Source: a virus. Taken from it: a DNA stretch of 64,000 bases. The stretch lies in IMG/VR virus record IMGVR_UViG_3300042892_004373, positions 1 through 64,000 of that record; one strand, written 5' to 3'. The translations under genes were made by a program, and so were the position numbers. Below the pieces are notes generated by a model that had not been told where the DNA came from, did not search any database, and was given only the letters and a program-made list of their open reading frames with translations. This document shows positions 2,460 through 47,432 of the stretch, one piece after another (the first letter of the stretch is position 1; each line of letters begins with the position of its first letter).

Positions 2460-3917
2460 TTATTTTTTTAAATTCAAAACTTCTGAGGTACTTTTTCTTA
2501 CCTCATTACACAAATATTCATTATCATTTAAAGATTTTCCGTAAGAAGGAATTATTTCTTTTAACTTTTCTATCCAATCTTCATTTTTAAAACATTTCTC
2601 AATTAAGTCTAACATAATTGAAGTTGCGGTTGATGCACCTGGAGAAGCTCCTAATAAACCAGCTATTGTTCCATCTGCAGATGTAATGACTTCTGTACCA
2701 AATTCTAATACACCGTGTCCCTCTACATCCTTTTTAATTACTTGAACTCTTTGACCAGCGGTTTCTAAAACCCAATCTTTTGATTTTGCGGTTGGTACAT
2801 ATTCTCTTAGTGCATTCATTCTATCGTCTCCAGATTGACGAACTTGGTCAATTAGATACTTTGTTAGTGGAATGTTTTTTAAGCCAGCACCGATCATTGG
2901 AATGATGTTATTTAATCTAATTGATGTAAATAAGTCCCAATAAGAACCATTTTTAAGAAACTTTGTTGAGAATCCAGCATAAGGTCCAAATAATAACTCT
3001 TTTTTACCATTTATAATACGACTATCTATATGAGGAACAGACATTGGTGGTGCACCAACTCCTGCTTTACCATATACTTTAACGTGATGTTGTTCAATAA
3101 CTTCTCTATTAGTACAACGTAGCCATTGACCACTAACTGGAAATCCACCATAACCTTCAATTTCTGGAATACCAGATTTTTCTAATAGTGGAAGTGAACC
3201 ACCACCGGCACCAATAAATACAAAGTCGGTTGTTATTTTTCTTTTTTCGTTAGTAGATAAGTCTTTAACTTTAATGACCCATTTACCTTCTTTATTTTTT
3301 AACTTTTTTACTTCATGATTAAAGTGTAATTCAACACCATCTTGTGATTTAAGATAATCAAACATACTTCTTGTTAAGTTACCAAAGTTTACGTCAGTTC
3401 CCATTTCCATAAAAGTTGCGGCAACTTTTTGAGTTTCTTTACGACCATTCATAATAAGTGGTGCCCAAGATTTGATTGTATCAAAATCTTCGGTGTATTT
3501 CATATCTTTAAATAAAGTATTTGATTTTAAAGTGTTGTATCTTGTTTTTAGATAATTTACATTATCTTGATCCCATACAAAACTCATGTGTGGACTCTGT
3601 CTAATAAAGTATTCTGGTTTTATAATTAAGTTATTCTTAACTAAGAAAGACCAAAATTGTTTTGATACTTCAAATTGTTCAGCAATTTGAATTGCTTTAT
3701 TTGGATTTATTGAACCATCTGTTTTTTGTGGAGTATAGTTTAATTCACAAAATGCAGAGTGACCAGTACCAGCATTATTCCAAGCATCAGAGCTTTCTGC
3801 GGCGGCAGAGTCTAATCTTTCAAAGATTTGTATATTTAATTCTGGATCTAATTGTTTAAGGATTGTTCCTAAGGTGGCACTCATAATTCCGGCACCGATA
3901 AGAGTTATATTTGTCAT
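2460..3917 (-). CDS. mqo: Malate:quinone oxidoreductase
   Basis: IGAGIMSATL, AWNNAGTGHSAFCELNYTP, GAPPMSVPHID, LLGASPGAS. Confidence 0.96.
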   Translation of the reverse strand: MTNITLIGAGIMSATLGTILKQLDPELNIQIFERLDSAAAESSDAWNNAGTGHSAFCELNYTPQKTDGSINPNKAIQIAEQFEVSKQFWSFLVKNNLIIKPEYFIRQSPHMSFVWDQDNVNYLKTRYNTLKSNTLFKDMKYTEDFDTIKSWAPLIMNGRKETQKVAATFMEMGTDVNFGNLTRSMFDYLKSQDGVELHFNHEVKKLKNKEGKWVIKVKDLSTNEKRKITTDFVFIGAGGGSLPLLEKSGIPEIEGYGGFPVSGQWLRCTNREVIEQHHVKVYGKAGVGAPPMSVPHIDSRIINGKKELLFGPYAGFSTKFLKNGSYWDLFTSIRLNNIIPMIGAGLKNIPLTKYLIDQVRQSGDDRMNALREYVPTAKSKDWVLETAGQRVQVIKKDVEGHGVLEFGTEVITSADGTIAGLLGASPGASTATSIMLDLIEKCFKNEDWIEKLKEIIPSYGKSLNDNEYLCNEVRKSTSEVLNLKK

Positions 3918-8959: not shown

Positions 8960-9195
8960 TATTCGTCTTTATATTTAGTTGTTAAATGATAATAATCACA
9001 TTGTTCACATCTATATGCTACTAAAGTTGTATCTTTTTTAGGATATGTTTTATTTAAGTATTCTGCATTTACTTGTGCCAGTGTAAGAGTTTCCCATCTT
9101 ACTTTTGGTGTTTTATTTGCGGATATACAGATTTCATTTTTTTCTTCCATATGTATTCTTGATTTCCTTGGGAAAACTAATTCATTTTTATTCAT
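8959..9195 (-). CDS. Small zinc-ribbon protein
   Basis: YRCEQCDYYHLT; TATCTTTG box at 9200-9207. Confidence 0.65.
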   Translation of the reverse strand: MNKNELVFPRKSRIHMEEKNEICISANKTPKVRWETLTLAQVNAEYLNKTYPKKDTTLVAYRCEQCDYYHLTTKYKDE

Positions 9196-9254
9196 GTAGC
9201 AAAGATAATAAAAAAATCCCAAAAGAACTAACTTTTGGGATTTTTCTTTCTAAA

Positions 9255-9337
9255 TGGTGGAGCTCAACCTTCCATTCGCGGGAAGGTCTATCCACCTCGG
9301 TTACGTTTCCACGAAGGAAAGAGGCTTGACCGGCACC
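9255..9337 (-). ncRNA. Unidentified GC-rich structured small RNA
   Basis: Hairpins UUUCC/GGAAA, GACCUUCC/GGAAGGUU and GGUGGA/UCCACC; ends CUCCACCA; followed by a terminator at 9210-9245. Confidence 0.5.
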
Positions 9338-9346
9338 TGAGATATG

Positions 9347-9416
9347 AGGCAGAAAAAGGAATCGAACCTCTGTGTAGGAACTTGCGGTTCCTCGCCTAAC
9401 ACTCAGCCATTCTGCC
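9347..9416 (-). tRNA. tRNA-Cys(GCA), atypical anticodon loop
   Basis: Acceptor GGCAGAA/UUCUGCC, U73, GUUCGAUUC T-loop, stem AGGAA/UUCCU, loop CCGCAAG. Confidence 0.8.
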
Positions 9417-9459
9417 ATATTGTTCTACAAAGATAGAACTTTTTTTATATAATAAAAAA

Positions 9460-10095
9460 TTATTTTGTTGTTAAAATTAATCTGTCGATTCCAAGTGCAA
9501 AACCAACCCCACCTTCATAAGAACCACCACCACAAATTTGTTTTTGTGCTCCTAATTCTGGACATGAGATTTCAAATCCTTTACCACCTTTGTAGTAGTC
9601 AAGTCCTCTTGTTGCATCTAAGTTTACTTCATAGTTATCAGTTGCTAATTCAATTAGTTTAGTTGCGATTTCTAACATTTCATCAGTCATATCTTGAGTT
9701 GGGTTGATTACTTCAACTCCGAATTGCGTGAATTGTCTGTATCTACCAGCTTGTGGTTTTTCACCTCTAAAACATTCTCCAATATAGAATAATTTAACAT
9801 TCTTAGTCATTTTAAATGTTTCGTTTGCAAGTTGTTGAACAACTGCTGTGTATTCTGGTGCTAAGCAAATGTCTCTGTTACCTCTATCAGTAAAAGTATA
9901 CATCATGTTGTTATTTTCTTCACCTACTTTACTAGCGAATGTTTCAGTTAGTTGAATAACTGGGATCATCATTTCTTGATAACCATAAGATTCCATAATC
10001 TCGATCATTTGATTTAGTAATCTTCTTTTGTTTCTGGCAGTTTCACCAAAAACTATCCTCGTACCTTTGTACGTTTTACTTGTCTTTATCTCCAT
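9460..10095 (-). CDS. hisS: Minimal histidyl-tRNA synthetase (catalytic core only)
   Basis: Class II motif 2 FRGEKPQAGRYRQFTQFGVE, RGLDYY, GGG.Y, motif 3 GFALGIDRL; stops 5 aa after motif 3. Confidence 0.85.
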   Translation of the reverse strand: MEIKTSKTYKGTRIVFGETARNKRRLLNQMIEIMESYGYQEMMIPVIQLTETFASKVGEENNNMMYTFTDRGNRDICLAPEYTAVVQQLANETFKMTKNVKLFYIGECFRGEKPQAGRYRQFTQFGVEVINPTQDMTDEMLEIATKLIELATDNYEVNLDATRGLDYYKGGKGFEISCPELGAQKQICGGGSYEGGVGFALGIDRLILTTK

Positions 10096-10120
10096 TTTAA
10101 TAATATATTTTTTGTTTAAT

Positions 10121-10240
10121 AAAAAAGCCCAGATCATTATAATCTGGGCTTATGTTTAAATTAGCAATTTTTAAGACATATACTTACGACCCAGATTTCT
10201 CTGTGTGATGATGTAGTTTATATGTTGTTTTCATTTTCAT
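10121..10240 (-). promoter_or_regulatory. Histidine attenuator: leader MKMKTTYKLHHHTEKSGS (10184-10240) plus terminator (10121-10152)
   Basis: CAT CAT CAC run; leader AUCUGGG is complementary to the terminator 5' arm CCCAGAU; TATATTTG box at 10245-10252. Confidence 0.85.
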
Positions 10241-10287
10241 ACTGCAAATATATTACTTTTTATTTTATTATACAAATAAATTTTATT

Positions 10288-10671
10288 TTATTGGACATTT
10301 ATATTTTGTGGTAGTGCTAAGAAACCACCATATAAGTTATACCCTATATAAAAATTAAAGGATATACCACTGGTATTTGGTGTTAAAGTAAATGTGCCAC
10401 CTAATGTGCCACTCCCATCAATATATAGCTGAATAAAACTATTATCTATATTTTCAACAAATTGATTTGCTCTACTAAATGAAGGTGATGTACCATCTAT
10501 CCACCAGTAAAGAAATGTACCTTCTGAAACTCCAGATATACCACTTATAGTAAATGTTATTGTACTACCTTGTGTTGGATTATAGTTACTTGCCACAAAT
10601 GTTGGTTGTGAAGGTGGAGGAGGTGTATTTCCATCTCCTGTAAAACTTGTTCCTATTATTGATTGTATCAT
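10288..10671 (-). CDS. Putative virion structural protein (beta-rich)
   Basis: Gly/Ser/Thr-rich, follows the fibre gene, TAATATATA upstream. Confidence 0.5.
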   Translation of the reverse strand: MIQSIIGTSFTGDGNTPPPPSQPTFVASNYNPTQGSTITFTISGISGVSEGTFLYWWIDGTSPSFSRANQFVENIDNSFIQLYIDGSGTLGGTFTLTPNTSGISFNFYIGYNLYGGFLALPQNINVQ

Positions 10672-10771
10672 ATTTTATTTTTTATTTTTTATTTGCTATT
10701 ATATATTATTTTTAATAAAGAAGCAATTGTTATTAGACAATTGCTTCTTAATTTTATTAGTTTTTCTATTT

Positions 10772-15119: not shown

Positions 15120-16391
15120 TTATCTTAATATTGTTTGTGTTCGGTCAGGACCAACTGATACTATTTTAATTGGTGTTTCTAACTCTTTTTCGATGAACTC
15201 TATATATTCTTTTAATTCACCTGGTAAACTATCAAAATCTTTTACCTTAGTTATATCTTCCGACCAACCATCAAACCCTATGTAAATAGGTTCTAGGTTC
15301 TCTGGTTCAATATTATAAGGAAAGTGAGTGATTATCTCACCTTTATATTTATAACCTGTACAAACCATTATTTTATCAAATCCAGATAACACATCACCTT
15401 TCATCATCATAAGTTCAGTAACTCCATTGATTTGACAAGTATATTTAAGTGCAACTAAATCTAACCAACCACATCTTCTAGCTCTACCAGTAACAGAACC
15501 AAATTCGTTACCAATCTTGGCCATTTTTTCACCTACTTCATCAAATAATTCTGTTGGGAATGGTCCACTTCCAACTCTTGTTGTATAAGCTTTGAAAATA
15601 CCATAAACATCTTTGATTCGATTAGGTGCAATTCCTAATCCAGTACAAGCTCCTGCTGCCGTTGTATTAGAAGAGGTAACAAATGGATAAGTACCAAAGT
15701 CAACATCTAATAAAGAACCTTGTGCACCTTCGCATAGAATAGATTTTCCATCTCTTTGAGCTTGATGTAAATACTCTTCACTATCGATAAAAGTAAATTG
15801 TTTTAGATAAGCAAGTGCATCTAAAAATTCTTCTTCCATATCTTCATAGTTAGTATTAAATTGTTTAGTAACACCCCACTCAATTAGTTCTTCGTGTTTC
15901 TCAAAAAGTTTGCAAAATCTTTTGTGAAAGTCTGGTAATTCTAAATCACCAACTCTGATTCCATTTCTACCTGTTTTATCCATATAAGTCGGTCCAATTC
16001 CTTTAAGAGTTGATCCAATTTTATCTTTACCTTTGGCTACTTCAGAAGTTGCATCTAAAAGTTTGTGAGTAGGTAGAATTAAGTGAGCTTTTCTTGATAT
16101 AAGCAATCTTTTTTTGACATCCATATCAAACTTAGCTAAAGCTTCTACTTCTTGTCTAAATACAACCGGATCAAGTACAACACCATTACCAATTATATTT
16201 ACTGTGTCTTTATGAAAGATACCAGAAGGTATAGTTCGTAGTACGTGTTTGATACCGTCAAACTCCAATGTATGTCCTGCATTTGGACCTCCTTGAAACC
16301 TTGCAACAATATCATATTTTGCGGTTAAAACGTCAACGATTTTACCTTTTCCTTCGTCTCCCCATTGAAGACCTAATAATAAATCTGCCAT
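15120..16391 (-). CDS. purA: Adenylosuccinate synthetase
   Basis: QWGDEGKGK, GGPNAGHT, EGAQG, GTYPFVTSS, TGRARRCGWLD. Confidence 0.97.
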   Translation of the reverse strand: MADLLLGLQWGDEGKGKIVDVLTAKYDIVARFQGGPNAGHTLEFDGIKHVLRTIPSGIFHKDTVNIIGNGVVLDPVVFRQEVEALAKFDMDVKKRLLISRKAHLILPTHKLLDATSEVAKGKDKIGSTLKGIGPTYMDKTGRNGIRVGDLELPDFHKRFCKLFEKHEELIEWGVTKQFNTNYEDMEEEFLDALAYLKQFTFIDSEEYLHQAQRDGKSILCEGAQGSLLDVDFGTYPFVTSSNTTAAGACTGLGIAPNRIKDVYGIFKAYTTRVGSGPFPTELFDEVGEKMAKIGNEFGSVTGRARRCGWLDLVALKYTCQINGVTELMMMKGDVLSGFDKIMVCTGYKYKGEIITHFPYNIEPENLEPIYIGFDGWSEDITKVKDFDSLPGELKEYIEFIEKELETPIKIVSVGPDRTQTILR

Positions 16392-19085: not shown

Positions 19086-19925
19086 ATAAGGGGCTGAGAT
19101 TATGCCATCTTGTAAGAATCTTTTGAAGAATTATTGTTTCTCTTCGTATCCACAATCTTTTGGATTGTAATTCTCATTGAGGATTAGTTAGACTAATCAC
19201 TTCTTGAGGCTTCAACTACTCTCTTATTACTCAACTCTCTTCAAACTTGCGGTCTGATTAAGGGTTCGACCCCTTAGAGGTTTTTGGCAAGAATACGTCT
19301 CAACTTGCGATCTTGACGTGCACTGGACAACCCAGTACTATGTACTCAACTTTCGTTGAAGCCTGACAGACACTTTTGCTTTTTATGTTTAAATTTTACT
19401 TCAAATGTAAATTGCTTTTGTGTTCGTGGATGTGTCGAAGAAGTGGTCTGCCGTAAGCTTCGTTATCTTTTGAACAACGAAATACTAAACTCCTTCGTGA
19501 AGCCTCCCAGCCTCCATATTTTAAGACAACTTCAAACTAACGCCTTGGTAGACATTTAGTAGGGATAGTAGCAGCACCACCTGTTCTCTACCATTACCTT
19601 TCGGTTTTAAGTTACCTTTTATATTGGAAGTCGCAATCATATAGTTGGAGCCATATTTCTTGCAAAAATCCTATGAGTTATTCTTATTGGTGTTCCCACC
19701 TCAACCGGACAATCCACATTGCCACGATTACTCAACCACTTTTTCTACAGTGTTACCCTCGATACTGAAGGTTGAGTAATATCTCACTTGTGTACTCGAG
19801 CTCTTACGAGCCGCAGAACCATTTAACGTTGATTCCACTTTAGCCTACTTTCGTAGTTTATTTAACGACGATACACCGCCGATTATCATTTTACTAGCCA
19901 CCGAAGTGATTAGTTGGATAATACA
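19086..19925 (-). ncRNA. Large structured ncRNA, GOLLD-like (boundaries approximate)
   Basis: ~840-nt GC-elevated region with no credible ORF, many GNRA/UUCG hairpins, own TATCTTTG box (19967-19974), next to a tRNA cluster. Confidence 0.65.
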
Positions 19926-20022
19926 ATATTTTCAAAGAACGTATTCATTTTGTTTTTATTATAGAGCAAAGATAATAAAAGTTGTTTAAACTACCAAAAT
20001 TATTTTACTTTATTTTTAAAAA

Positions 20023-20135: not shown

Positions 20136-20232
20136 TAGTCTGTACGGGATTCGAACCCGTGTGACCAGCCGCCCCGAAGGACCGCTACCCGTCCTGACTC
20201 ACCGAAGTGAGTATCCGCTAGACGAACAGACC
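20136..20232 (-). ncRNA. tRNA-Glu-bodied RNA copy 1 (D-loop hairpin insert; anticodon arm capped by UUCG)
   Basis: GGUCUGUUCGUCUAGCGG...AGGAC...GGGUUCGAAUCCCGUACAGACUA. Confidence 0.8.
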
Positions 20233-20263
20233 GATAAGTAGTTGCCTACCTAGGTTTTATTTG

Positions 20264-20352
20264 TAGTCTGTACGGGATTCGAACCCGCGTTACCTCCTTC
20301 GAAGGGAGAAGTCCTGACTCACCGAGGTGAGTATCCACTAGACGAACAGACC
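20264..20352 (-). tRNA. tRNA-Glu-bodied RNA copy 2 with UCG (Arg) anticodon and D-loop insert
   Basis: Stem UCUCC/GGAGG, loop CUUCGAA; insert ACUCAC-CUCG-GUGAGU. Confidence 0.75.
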
Positions 20353-22162: not shown

Positions 22163-23227
22163 TTATCCTGAAATATATCTAAATAATAGAAATAATCCAC
22201 AAGAAACTAGAATTGTTACTGGTAACGTAAGAATCCAAGCAGATAATATAGTTTTAATTGTTTTTGTTTTTAAGTTATTTACTCCTTTTGATGCCACCAT
22301 TGACCCTGCAATACCAGAGCTTAATATGTGTGTTGTTGATACTGGTAGCTTAAACGCAGTTGATAATCCGATTGTAATTGCGGCGACTAACTCAGAAGAC
22401 GCTCCTTGTGCATAAGTTAAATGTTGTTTACCAATTTTTTCTCCGATCGTAACAACAATTCTTTTCCATCCAATCATTGTTCCTAATCCTAATGAAGTGG
22501 CAATCATCCACATAACCCACATTGGTGGATTCTCAACATTTTCTAATGTAAATATAGTAGGTAAGAAAGCCATAAGAATAATCATTGCTAAACCAATTCC
22601 TTTTTGACCATCATTTCTTCCGTGAAAGAATGAAACTAATGTACAAGTAGAAATTAAGGTCGCTCTAATCCATAATGGTGGTGGATTATCTCCTTTAGGC
22701 TCTTCAAATACGTCTTTTCTTTTAATAACTTTGTTTAAGAACCACATTAGAAGGATAACCATAGTAAATCCTAATAAAGGTGAGAATGCTAAAGCTTTTC
22801 CTATATCAATAATTTTACCCCAATTAGTATAATCTACTCCTGTTATAATAGAATAACCAACAGAAACTCCGATAATTGATCCAATTAGTGTATGAGAGGA
22901 AGAAGCTGGAATTCCTTTATACCAAGTTGCTAAATTCCAAAGGATTGCAGTTATAAGAATTGACATAACCATTCCCATTGAGTGATAGATGTTAGTATCG
23001 GTAAGTAATTCTTTAGGAATAAGTGTTACAATACTTAATGCAACACCTACACCACCAGTGATAAGACCTAGGAAATTCATAATTCCTGACCAAACAACTG
23101 CTTGTTTAGGTTTTAAAGATTTTGTGTAGATTACTGTGGCAACCGCATTTGCGGTATCGTGAAATCCATTAACGAATTCAAATATACAAACTGCAAGTAA
23201 GGCTAGAATTAGAAAAGTTGTTAACAT
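22163..23227 (-). CDS. PiT-family inorganic phosphate transporter
   Basis: NGFHDTANAVAT, GIPASSSH, HGRNDGQK, PVSTTH. Confidence 0.93.
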   Translation of the reverse strand: MLTTFLILALLAVCIFEFVNGFHDTANAVATVIYTKSLKPKQAVVWSGIMNFLGLITGGVGVALSIVTLIPKELLTDTNIYHSMGMVMSILITAILWNLATWYKGIPASSSHTLIGSIIGVSVGYSIITGVDYTNWGKIIDIGKALAFSPLLGFTMVILLMWFLNKVIKRKDVFEEPKGDNPPPLWIRATLISTCTLVSFFHGRNDGQKGIGLAMIILMAFLPTIFTLENVENPPMWVMWMIATSLGLGTMIGWKRIVVTIGEKIGKQHLTYAQGASSELVAAITIGLSTAFKLPVSTTHILSSGIAGSMVASKGVNNLKTKTIKTILSAWILTLPVTILVSCGLFLLFRYISG

Positions 23228-25878: not shown

Positions 25879-26721
25879 TTATTTACTAAACTCGTCGAAC
25901 TTTAAAAGTTTTGACTCAATTACTACTTCTTTAGTAGAACCGGCACCACCTCTTTTCTCGATGGCTTTCCATTTCTTATCTAAGAAAGCTAACTTAGCTT
26001 TATCGATTTTACAGTTTCTATCTGAAATGTTTCCTTCGTTAAAAAGAGAGATCATTTCATCAATACTTAATGTAGGGTGTTTTTTATCAAATAAAGGGTC
26101 TGGATGTGACCAACCGAATTTGAATAACCAGTTTAACATAGCGGCTTTGCTGAAGTCTTGGTAGTCTGCAGTAGTACCGTTACCTTTTCTCTTAGATAAT
26201 TTAGCATTACCCTCGAAAAGTAAACCAGCGTGTGTGATTGTTGGGAATGTCTTATCTCCTTCTACTTCACAAATCTTATCCCAGATAATTCTTTGTTTAG
26301 CCTCATTTGCAATGTGGTCAACACCTCTGATGATGTTAGTTACATCGTAATCGTAGTCGTCTAAGATAGAACAGAAGTTGTAAGTAGGGAATCCGTTATT
26401 TCTAAGGATAACCATTGAGTACTCTCCCATATCTAACTCGTAACCATTCTCAGTTTTAGTACCGATTTTCTCAGCCACTTCTCTGTAACGGTCTAATCTT
26501 TCAGATTGTCTGAATGTGATGTCGTGATCTAAACCAAAATCCGCCATTTGTTCATAGATATAGTCAATCCATTCTGGTTTATTTCTTTCTTGATCAGTAT
26601 CATCAATTCTTAAAATGAATGTACCGTTATTCGCTCTTGCTTGAAGCCAAACAAGTAATGCCGTTCTTAAAGTTCCTAAGTGGAAAAAGCCAGTTGGAGA
26701 GGGTGCTACTCTTGTTACCAT
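25879..26721 (-). CDS. Minimal glutamyl-tRNA synthetase / GluQ-RS-like catalytic core
   Basis: RVAPSPTG.FHLGT, RIDDTD, PTYNF, IRGVDH, KLSKR; no anticodon-binding domains. Confidence 0.85.
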   Translation of the reverse strand: MVTRVAPSPTGFFHLGTLRTALLVWLQARANNGTFILRIDDTDQERNKPEWIDYIYEQMADFGLDHDITFRQSERLDRYREVAEKIGTKTENGYELDMGEYSMVILRNNGFPTYNFCSILDDYDYDVTNIIRGVDHIANEAKQRIIWDKICEVEGDKTFPTITHAGLLFEGNAKLSKRKGNGTTADYQDFSKAAMLNWLFKFGWSHPDPLFDKKHPTLSIDEMISLFNEGNISDRNCKIDKAKLAFLDKKWKAIEKRGGAGSTKEVVIESKLLKFDEFSK

Positions 26722-37903: not shown

Positions 37904-38746
37904 TTAGTCTTGTAATTCAAGTTGTTCTTGATTTTGTTTTTGAAGTAACTCCATAGCTCTTGCTAATCTTGTTAAACCAATTCCTGCACCAAATCTTGGA
38001 AAGAAGTCAAATTTTAAGAACTCTTCTAGTTCTGCTTCTACTCTTTCTTTTCCAAATAATTCAAATAGTTTTTTAGAATATCCACCATTTTCTATTGTAT
38101 AGAACATTTTTCTCATAGATTCAACATCACAACTTCTTTCTGCAGCGCCTATTGTTTCTTGTCCATATAATATTATATCAACTTTATTGAATATATCATC
38201 TTTTTGATTTTGCATGTTCCAAAATGGATTAGTTCTTAGTGGAAAGTTTTGAAGAGAAACACAATGACTTACTTCATTCCACATTTTAGTTTCATGTTCA
38301 TTTTCTAAAATTGATACGTCTCCATATTCTTTACAAGTTTTGTTGTAGTCCATTTCAACAGGTAAACCAAATCCTAAATACTCAAGAAGTTCTTTTTCTA
38401 ATAGAATTAAGTCTTTATATTTACCTTTTGATTCAAATTCAAACATTGGAAAGATTAGTTCATGTCTTCCAGGAATTGGATTTTTTTCTGCTCTGTAACT
38501 TGTAGATATACAAAAAACTCCATCCCAAGTAGGGTTTTTTAATAATTCATACTCGAGCCACATTTGTCCTGTTTGTGGTAACGGCCATATCTCACCATTG
38601 TATTCAAAAGTTGATACTGAGTGTGGGTTTTCACAAGCTGCTAAAATTGATAGTCTTGATTGTGTTGGTACTTCTACGAAGTTTTTTTCCAAAAAAAATT
38701 CTCTTAGTTTCTGAACTAGAGAATTGTACATTAAAGTGTTTGTCAT
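37904..38746 (-). CDS. AsnRS-like catalytic core (class IIb, no OB domain); possibly asparagine synthetase-like
   Basis: FVEVP, LPQTGQMWLE, SYRAE..RH...FEFE, GAGIGLTRL. Confidence 0.78.
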   Translation of the reverse strand: MTNTLMYNSLVQKLREFFLEKNFVEVPTQSRLSILAACENPHSVSTFEYNGEIWPLPQTGQMWLEYELLKNPTWDGVFCISTSYRAEKNPIPGRHELIFPMFEFESKGKYKDLILLEKELLEYLGFGLPVEMDYNKTCKEYGDVSILENEHETKMWNEVSHCVSLQNFPLRTNPFWNMQNQKDDIFNKVDIILYGQETIGAAERSCDVESMRKMFYTIENGGYSKKLFELFGKERVEAELEEFLKFDFFPRFGAGIGLTRLARAMELLQKQNQEQLELQD

Positions 38747-46240: not shown

Positions 46241-46599
46241 ATTCCTAATTTAGTTAAAATTTTATCTCTATAGAAACTTATATCATCGACAATAAAAAGG
46301 TTTGAATCTGTAATAATTAGATTATCAATAATCTCAATAATCTTTGAGGTTGTCTGCATTGGTATAAATCCAGATTGATAACTTGTAACTATTTGATTTA
46401 TTTCTAACAAATCTACCTTAGCAGTTTCTAGATGTACAATACCTTTACATTTTTGTAAAGAATATTTGTCTATAAATTCTTTATTATTTAAAATTTTTTT
46501 ATAGTATTTATTTTCAATATCTACCATAACATAGGAAACCTCAGTGGATTTACCACTGAGGTGATTATGAATTAAATCTCCTACTTTAGCCAATTTCAT
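46237..46599 (-). CDS. Hypothetical protein with RDKILTKL tag
   Basis: Operon ORF. Confidence 0.6.
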   Translation of the reverse strand: MKLAKVGDLIHNHLSGKSTEVSYVMVDIENKYYKKILNNKEFIDKYSLQKCKGIVHLETAKVDLLEINQIVTSYQSGFIPMQTTSKIIEIIDNLIITDSNLFIVDDISFYRDKILTKLGI

Positions 46600-47432
46600 T
46601 ATAGTATTTTATTACCAGTTTTTGAGCCTAAAACAACTGCGGGTGTACCATTTTCTAGTTCACCTGGCATAATCATTGCTTGTGACTCAATACCCATCAT
46701 TTTAACAGGTTTTAAATTTGTTACGAACAAGAAAGAGTATCCTTCTAATTTATCAACATAGTTCTCACCTAATGAAGATTTAATATTTGTTACAACAACT
46801 CTTGGTGTGTCTTCACCAAAGTCAACTTCTAACTTAATAAGTTTTTCTGATTTAGGTACATCTGTTACTGATATAATCTTTCCTGTTTTAATTTCTAATT
46901 TAGATGATACATCTAAAAATTCACTGAATTCTATTTTATCTTTCATGTTTAATATATTTATTGCTTTAATTTTACATTCTTCTTTTAATCCTGGAATTCC
47001 TAATTTCCAAGGTTTTACTGGTTCTCCTGTTGAACAATTTACAAAATAATCTTGTTGTTCATCTAAGAAATCTTGTATATCATCAAATATAACATACTGA
47101 GTTACTTCTGGGTGTCTATCTAACCAAAGTTTAATTTCGTGGCCTCTTTTTACTTGATCATAATAAACTATGTTGGTTGCTTCACATACATCTACGCAAT
47201 CTGGTGTTACATCAATAATTTCACCTGGTAGATTACGTTCTTTCCAAAGTGATAACATTCGTTCTATTCCTTTATCTTTCCAAGTTGAGGAGATAACGAT
47301 TTTTGCTCCTGTTTTCTCGATAACTTCCTTTAAGTTCTGGACGTACTCATCCCTGAAGATATGACCAAATTGGTCTTTATCTGCATAATCTACGTTTAAA
47401 ACTCCGTCAATGTCTAGAAATATCGTTTTCAT
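46599..47432 (-). CDS. HAD phosphatase (Swiss-Army-knife RNA-repair type) fused to a Trbp111/CsaA-type tRNA-binding OB domain
   Basis: FLDIDGVLN, ISSTW, RG.EI..WL, YVIFDD; then KLIKLEVDFG, NLKPVKMMGIESQAM. Confidence 0.82.
   Translation of the reverse strand: MKTIFLDIDGVLNVDYADKDQFGHIFRDEYVQNLKEVIEKTGAKIVISSTWKDKGIERMLSLWKERNLPGEIIDVTPDCVDVCEATNIVYYDQVKRGHEIKLWLDRHPEVTQYVIFDDIQDFLDEQQDYFVNCSTGEPVKPWKLGIPGLKEECKIKAINILNMKDKIEFSEFLDVSSKLEIKTGKIISVTDVPKSEKLIKLEVDFGEDTPRVVVTNIKSSLGENYVDKLEGYSFLFVTNLKPVKMMGIESQAMIMPGELENGTPAVVLGSKTGNKIL

Follow-up and report, generated by a model that had tools for sequence, protein, structure and literature searches.

We analysed a stretch of 64,000 nucleotides (nt) of viral DNA (IMG/VR record IMGVR_UViG_3300042892_004373, positions 1 to 64,000; hereafter the window), in which a short open reading frame (ORF) with His codons and an intrinsic terminator precede a gene for a truncated histidyl-tRNA synthetase (HisRS). 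All of the elements described here lie on the minus strand. The gene (9460..10095, start ATG 10095) encodes a HisRS-like catalytic core only, 211 aa long and with zero His residues, and is called mini-HisRS in the following. Upstream of it, a Bacteroidota-type promoter (10245..10276; -33 TTTG, 20-nt spacer, -7 TAnnTTTG) has its -7 box ending 4 nt before the ATG (10240-10238) of an 18-codon leader ORF (10184..10240; stop codon 10186-10184). Codons 10-12 of this ORF are three consecutive His codons (two CAT, one CAC; 10205..10213), the proposed sensing codons. They lie 8-14 nt upstream of the 5' strand of a predicted antiterminator (10189..10197), which forms 9 pairs with 10149-10141 and ends 3 nt before the stop codon. 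The intrinsic terminator (10125..10151) has a 12-bp stem, with its 5' arm at 10151-10140, a 3-nt loop at 10139-10137 and its 3' arm at 10136-10125. The T run covers 10126-10121, and 25 nt separate its end from the ATG of the gene.

The initial annotation of this DNA had described a promoter box, an 18-aa leader, His codons, a segment complementary to the terminator and the terminator itself ahead of ATG 10095, and we found all of these elements where it had placed them. The antiterminator strand at 10197-10189 corresponds to its 7-nt segment (10196-10190, which ends 4 nt before the leader stop codon) with one base added on each side. ATG 10095 is the start common to the homologues, M1 being invariant in the alignment of the family (A1). 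Behind the mini-HisRS gene, 43 nt from its 3' end, there is a tRNA-Cys gene called by ARAGORN (9346..9416), an arrangement also present in the relative L001, and a hairpin scan placed the terminator closing the unit at 9210..9247. The tRNA-Cys gene has a -7-like box of its own, and could be part of the attenuated transcript or separate from it. From tRNA-Cys to the closing terminator (9248-9345) extend ~100 nt that are GC-richer and hairpin-capable, where tRNA calling and an Rfam search gave no tRNA and no family.

We compared the local arrangement with chance expectations. The His triplet by itself is weak evidence for sensing, as CAYCAYCAY occurs 29 times in the window when both strands are counted. 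Promoter boxes of the -33 TTTG / -7 TAnnTTTG type were found 13 times (4.27 +/- 1.9 expected), all of them on the minus strand, which carries most of the genes. Four terminator-like sites fall within 2.5 kb around the locus, where 0.8 were expected. The leader region folds better than its shuffled versions (z -2.9; 2 of 200 shuffles equally good), and the duplex of the window leader with the terminator 5' arm reaches -14.3 kcal/mol against -6.2 +/- 1.8 for shuffled sequences, with none of 300 being equal. The spacing of the terminator was examined among the 15 hairpins of the window that have a gene of at least 70 aa ending within 200 nt upstream. Fourteen of them follow the upstream gene at -2 to 20 nt, and the remaining one, the leader terminator, follows it at 136 nt and beyond its own promoter. 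L023, a near-identical relative, has an additional terminator for the upstream gene, placed ahead of the leader promoter. A promoter that leads into a terminator after ~115 nt can be understood as a regulated stop or a small RNA gene, and not as the end of the preceding gene. In the survey of the other terminators of the window none qualified as a further attenuator, and the LeuRS-like gene of the window (33550-32294, minus strand) has a plain promoter and no leader at that locus.

The regulated protein matched the Pfam family tRNA-synt_His (7.6e-26) and, among the NCBIfam models, hisS (1.4e-48) and hisZ (6.1e-30). Its hisS score of 165.9 bits is below the equivalog cut-off of 286.75 because the protein is half-size. 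When a profile of 13 family members was compared with solved structures, HisRS 1qe0 came first (5.4e-33), and the HisZ structures followed at 1.4e-08 and 6.3e-08. An identity as HisZ was therefore rejected, the hisS models and HisRS structures matching far better. The profile aligns to 1qe0 residues 6-140 and 232-315, including the motif 2 and motif 3 regions. HisRS residues ~141-231 and those past 316 are without counterpart (211 aa against about 420), and therefore the insertion domain and the anticodon-binding domain are absent. The family alignment has many invariant columns, among which are what we take to be the named catalytic residues of HisRS. To our knowledge, a core of 211 aa is about half the size of any characterised HisRS.

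Among cellular homologues, a scan of genome contigs found the short form only on three contigs of metagenome-assembled genomes (53-61% identity), and the remaining cellular matches were full-length HisRS with at most 44% identity. Among phage records, two uncultured phages, of 642 and 635 kb, are closest. A paper on huge-phage clades predicts Bacteroidetes as hosts for those of its genomes that exceed 634 kb; it does not name the accessions of these two phages (PMC7162821). A Bacteroidota host fits the promoter type and the presence in the window of a protein with a type-9-secretion sorting domain. His is absent from the window protein, from all 21 leader-bearing proteins and from all 38 proteins of the main clade of the family tree (see below); over the whole family, 76 of 104 distinct members are His-free and the rest have 1-5 His. 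A mini-HisRS without His should therefore be translatable when His-tRNA is lacking. The zero His count and the match to HisRS far above that to HisZ support the earlier suggestion of a genuine His-related function for the 211-aa enzyme.

The initial annotation had proposed conservation upstream of homologues as a check. We collected 157 loci and could assign the gene start in 143 of them, which gave 118 distinct upstream regions. Of the 115 regions screened, 19 have a terminator-like hairpin no further than 120 nt from the gene start, and a short ORF containing His codons stands ahead of the hairpin in 16 of these 19. Six further leader units were recovered, namely L023, whose T run is interrupted, and L030, L038, L019 (LR745206), L036 and L033, where the leader unit is located ~250 nt upstream of mini-HisRS. 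In total, the leader ORF, antiterminator and terminator recur in 22 of the 118 regions, before proteins with identities down to 62%, and the proposed check thus favours the attenuator interpretation. In the five loci with the distant leader unit, a basic ORF of roughly 75 codons stands between the attenuator and mini-HisRS, and the switch would then gate two genes.

Two of the 22 leaders are cut by contig ends. The 20 complete leaders represent 15 distinct peptides of 13-31 residues, L001/L024 and L023 having a leader ORF identical to that of the window. Every one of the 15 peptides has at least one His. The His residues occupy positions 10-12 in the window leader; 10-11; 10-12 and 15; 10-12 and 21; 11-13 and 22; or 9, 11, 13 and 22 in others; and 3 and 5; 7, 9, 10 and 13; 6, 8 and 12; 7, 9 and 14; or a single position, 5 or 6 (four leaders), in the rest. 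Of the 262 non-initiator residues, 41 are His (15.6%), compared to 3.1% in 2397 short ORFs from the same loci that served as controls. It is the most enriched residue (5-fold), followed by Thr (2.1-fold), and it is kept across leaders while the adjacent residues vary. The codons used are CAT (30) and CAC (11). In 14 of the 20 leaders there is a -7 box no more than 70 nt from the leader ATG, and in seven it stands 4-7 nt before the ATG. On a quick maximum-likelihood tree of the 104 distinct proteins, 18 of 21 leader rows fall in one 38-row clade and three in a separate small clade, a distribution that requires at least seven gains or losses. In close relatives without a leader, the gene is abutted by tRNA genes or by endonuclease ORFs of the LAGLIDADG-type or NUMOD-type (L027:591-1526, L103:792-1499). 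As these endonuclease ORFs stand at the gene start, mobile insertions explain part of the patchiness of the leader.

Both pairings of the proposed switch were evaluated across the leaders. For the duplex of terminator arm and leader, only 0-7 of 300 dinucleotide shuffles were equal in 19 of the 20 leaders (27 of 300 in L040), and the best duplex is located at or beside the leader stop codon. Covariation was scored on a MAFFT alignment (A3) made from 16 leaders, whose aligned portions begin immediately ahead of the antiterminator segment. At the terminator, 92% of the cells are paired and 7 of 12 pairs have changed on both sides; its covariation score is 0.492 against 0.199 for shuffled alignments, and none of 500 shuffles reached it. 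At the antiterminator, the paired cells amount to 85.6%, with changes on both sides in 6 of 10 pairs, a count that is somewhat favoured by the anchoring of the aligned portions on the best duplex site and that includes, as unpaired, the rows of L031 and L059, which are one column out of register. The antiterminator score is 0.318 against 0.190, again reached by none of 500 shuffles, and sliding the partner by one column lowers the pairing to 46-50% and the score to 0.06-0.08. The reading frame over the antiterminator segment varies among the leader types, and therefore what is conserved is an RNA element and not a peptide motif. The open frame from the ATG to the antiterminator region is nevertheless kept in all 20 complete leaders.

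Next, the effect of ribosome position was modelled. The transcript was folded at equilibrium to just before the terminator 3' arm, and a ribosome was simulated as a stretch barred from pairing, which ran from 15 nt upstream to 12 nt downstream of the first base of the A-site codon. In the window, the sequestration of the terminator 5' arm was 0.81, 0.81 and 0.57 with His codons 1, 2 and 3 in the A site, respectively, and 0.29 with the stop codon in that place. In 13 of 16 leaders, the value fell by at least 0.3 from the His to the stop position. The logic proposed earlier, that a ribosome stalled at the His codons would free the segment and one at the stop codon would mask it, thus appears as a predicted switch in these 13 modelled leaders, and it is plausible from the model that ribosome position selects the structure.

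We also looked for leaders of this kind before other phage genes. In G001, a 508-kb relative that is 97% complete by its record and holds the mini-HisRS locus L106, sites were selected at which a terminator lies >60 nt from the upstream gene end, with a gene of at least 80 aa within 100 nt and a short ORF before it. Five sites qualify. Four of the five precede synthetase genes, and in each of the four the leader has the matching residue. The leader of the gene for a 421-aa LeuRS-like protein (leuS 2.9e-117; leader and gene at 128046-129368) has 15 codons, with Leu at 9-12. Before the gene for a 509-aa ValRS-like protein (valS 8e-141; leader and gene at 396624-398224), the leader has 18 codons, with Val at 9-12 and 17. 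The gene for a 425-aa aspartate-tRNA(Asn) ligase (6.6e-148; leader and gene at 388202-389556) has a leader of 20 codons, with Asp at 10, 11 and 20, and the fourth site is the His leader before mini-HisRS. In these leaders too, a segment beside the stop codon is complementary to the terminator arm, with 0-18 of 300 shuffles being equal. Leu-run leaders precede LeuRS-like genes in 3 of 30 distinct upstream regions, L304 and L333 being among the carriers. A viral-contig scan for ValRS-like relatives gave no match besides G001 itself. In another relative, G002 (483 kb), the His leader is the only one that stands before a synthetase gene; three further candidates stand before a portal gene and two genes without a Pfam family, and have no residue runs. 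A leader residue that tracks the downstream synthetase is what amino-acid-specific attenuation predicts, and no such match is predicted if these units are general terminators or small RNA genes.

The absence of the cognate residue is likewise not confined to mini-HisRS. In G001, Asp is found at 0 of 425 positions of the AspRS (388279-389556), Val at 0 of 509 of the ValRS-like protein (396695-398224), Thr at 0 of 346 of the ThrRS (322160-323200), Pro at 0 of 368 of the ProRS (392810-393916) and His at 0 of 211 of the mini-HisRS. A GlyRS-like protein, itself a weak match, has Gly at 1 of 266 positions (422098-422898). The SerRS (Ser 12 of 423) and the LeuRS-like protein (Leu 20 of 421) are depleted, not free. 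The median contents of G001 ORFs of at least 150 aa are 6.9% Asp, 5.6% Val, 1.7% His and 8.2% Leu. In a literature search covering parts of the published texts, no synthetase lacking its cognate residue was found described. Besides mini-HisRS, the window carries, all on the minus strand, the LeuRS-like gene (418 aa; 32294-33550), a GluRS/GluQRS-like gene (280 aa; 25879-26721), a class II Asp/Asn/Lys-type core (280 aa; 37904-38746) and a gene for a protein with a HAD domain and a tRNA-binding domain (46599-47432). A residue count found none of the four other short synthetase-like genes of the window to be free of its presumed cognate.

Anatomy, conservation, both covariations, His enrichment, the cognate analogues and the His-free product form the basis on which we read the element, with high confidence, as a ribosome-mediated (leader-peptide) transcription attenuator that would read the supply of charged tRNA-His. 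The phage would thus probably make mini-HisRS only when charged tRNA-His runs short. RNA synthesis would start at the Bacteroidota-type promoter, and the 18-codon leader would be translated almost from the 5' end. With plentiful His-tRNA, the ribosome would reach the stop codon and cover 10197-10189, so that the terminator at 10151-10125 forms and transcription ends before the gene. With scarce His-tRNA, the ribosome would stall at codons 10-12 and leave 10197-10189 free to pair with 10149-10141; this pairing would block the terminator, and RNA polymerase would continue into the mini-HisRS gene. The enzyme, being His-free, could then be synthesised despite the missing His-tRNA, and in this respect it matches the condition under which the attenuator would open. 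We infer the translation of the leader, the stalling of the ribosome at the His codons, the timing of the polymerase and the response to histidine.

Several observations weigh against this assignment, in addition to the anchoring of the alignment mentioned above. The element is missing from 96 of the 118 homologous loci. The leaders of L030, L038, L019 and L033 have one His codon only, a level reached by 41% of the control ORFs, and this subgroup has the extra small ORF between terminator and gene. In L030, where the frame is extended, and in L114 and L115, where the stop codon lies 27 nt beyond the antiterminator segment, the model shows no difference with ribosome position. Without a ribosome, the modelled antiterminator forms in most leaders (0.7-1.0), and no clearly conserved anti-antiterminator or 1:2 pause hairpin was found across the leader types, although the folds contain small local hairpins. 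The design would therefore rest on occlusion by the terminating ribosome and not on a 1:2 hairpin, and the model leaves the synchrony of ribosome and polymerase unexplained. With only 4 nt between the -7 box and the ATG, the leader ORF would stand at or almost at the 5' end of its RNA and would have to be translated in this leaderless or nearly leaderless form. RNA contigs from three metatranscriptome runs and one run guessed to be RNA hold parts of 9200-10700, including 10216-10494 and 10170-10276, but their ends, strand and level are not readable, and they are neutral on termination at 10121.

The single-His leaders, the antiterminator that forms without a ribosome and the second-ranked enrichment of Thr would also suit a general translation-rate sensor or a constitutive partial terminator that damps the gene and is not His-specific. 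We regard this as unlikely, since His is the most enriched residue and is kept while its neighbours change, the leader residue in G001 follows the synthetase downstream (Leu, Val, Asp, His) and the product lacks exactly histidine. The compact unit enclosed by promoter and terminator could instead be a separate small gene giving a ~120-nt transcript, either a peptide or a small RNA, with mini-HisRS expressed independently. The contig spanning 10170-10276 agrees with such a transcript, and Sinorhizobium attenuator RNAs can act in trans (rnTrpL/peTrpL). However, the 25 nt between the terminator and ATG 10095 contain no -7 box, the peptide is not conserved among the leader types except for its His residues, and the unit always stands directly before mini-HisRS or before the small ORF and mini-HisRS. 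The segment complementary to the arm would, moreover, have no role in a small gene, which makes this explanation very improbable.

Synthetase genes are often controlled by a T-box or by their own enzyme, as at the E. coli thrS operator. A T-box-like contact with uncharged tRNA-His, with whose anticodon the His codons could in principle pair, or autoregulation by mini-HisRS would be the corresponding explanations here. They are, if anything, even less probable than a small gene: neither a T-box nor any other Rfam family matches the leader at E up to 10, and the ORF, its ATG and a stop codon beside the antiterminator are kept in 20 leaders despite the frame differences. An ORF that is kept while the frame of the RNA element differs is expected only if the leader is translated. 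As to chance, AT-rich DNA abounds in short ORFs and the His triplet is not rare in the window, so that the ordinary terminator of the upstream gene might simply stand behind a short ORF with three His codons. We give this almost no credence. The terminator sits 136 nt behind that gene and beyond its own promoter, outside the range of the other 14, and the upstream gene in L023 has its own terminator, ahead of the leader promoter. The conservation of the unit and its covariation likewise speak against chance, and the divergence of the leaders excludes assembly duplicates of one sequence.

The attenuator assigned here is similar to hisL of E. coli and Salmonella in having a short leader ORF with a His run, an intrinsic terminator and an exclusive alternative pairing, with ribosome position as the selecting event. 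It differs from hisL in that it has no sequence or structure match to it, shows no conserved 1:2 pause hairpin, lies in a phage behind a Bacteroidota-type promoter whose end is 4 nt from the ATG, and controls a synthetase core, whereas hisL gates biosynthetic genes. The hisL leader has seven His codons and the window leader three. The pheM leader of E. coli pheST is a cognate-codon leader-peptide attenuator of a synthetase gene, but it is cellular, precedes a full-length enzyme and is unrelated in sequence. The T-box of Firmicutes also senses the charging of a specific tRNA through a terminator/antiterminator switch before a synthetase gene; it reads the tRNA directly and without translation, whereas the phage leader keeps an ORF.

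In the Rfam search, no match to His_leader (RF00514; gathering score 49 bits) was found at 10120-10252 with E up to 10, nor anywhere in the window at the gathering score. Weak His_leader matches occurred at the other terminator (9144-9250, 26.5 bits; 9207-9345, 21.2 bits). Between 9000 and 11000, with E up to 10, the T-box was not among the 25 Rfam matches, and no known family fits the leader. In bacilli, a His leader peptide has been predicted before hisS* and hisZ (Naville and Gautheret 2010, PMC2965389). Those leaders are comparable in that a His-codon ORF lies in a premature-terminator region before HisRS paralogues; they differ in being on Firmicutes chromosomes, in preceding full-size paralogues and in being dissimilar as leaders. 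The word 'phage' occurs 0 times in the text of that paper.

The initial annotation had called attenuators in phage genomes unusual. This holds in so far as our literature search, judged largely from the beginnings of abstracts, found no leader-peptide attenuator described in a phage; the three more (Leu, Val, Asp) in G001 speak against it. What sets the proposed attenuator apart is that a textbook mechanism occurs in a virus, gates a half-size, His-free synthetase with a three-element design and has its promoter against the leader start. Leader-peptide attenuation, well known from Proteobacteria, would thereby be extended to viruses and to Bacteroidota-type promoters that abut the leader start codon.

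Why huge phages carry synthetases, many of them truncated, is an open question, and the paper on huge-phage clades offers only the possible charging of phage tRNAs (PMC7162821). A cognate-codon attenuator says when the enzyme is wanted, namely when the matching charged tRNA is short, and a His-free enzyme is built for being made under that shortage. Judged from the sequence, both features favour an active 211-aa core that works in the charging or supply of histidine. Together they turn a gene inventory into a testable regulatory hypothesis.

We lean slightly towards a broader interpretation, in which huge Bacteroidota phages have an emergency charging module, with synthetases written without their own amino acid, and the His switch forms one arm of it. 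A collapse of charged tRNA, caused by starvation, host shut-off or a tRNA-directed defence, would switch on the matching phage enzyme, several cognate-free synthetase genes being gated by leader peptides that test that same codon. Such an enzyme, having no need of the scarce residue, would remain translatable. The window encodes a phage NusA homologue with NusA_N and KH domains (60605-61837, plus strand). NusA affects pausing and intrinsic termination, and the homologue may tune both at these switches.

Other genes of the window encode a malate:quinone oxidoreductase (2460-3917), an adenylosuccinate synthetase (15120-16391), a PHO4-type phosphate transporter (22163-23227) and a ClpP protease (57197-57937), all on the minus strand, and a ClpB-like ATPase on the plus strand (26883-28937). 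A GOLLD RNA (Rfam RF02032, 324 bits, E 4.9e-92) was found at 19091-19497 on the minus strand, downstream of a tRNA cluster, and it probably extends from a promoter box at 19967-19998 to a terminator at 19057-19034. The 3' end of a GOLLD-like RNA was also observed upstream of mini-HisRS in L003. At 20263-20352 (minus strand), adjoining tRNA-Met, ARAGORN reported a tRNA-like gene with a four-base anticodon call (cggt), and a similar tRNA-like unit repeats just downstream, near 20140-20260.

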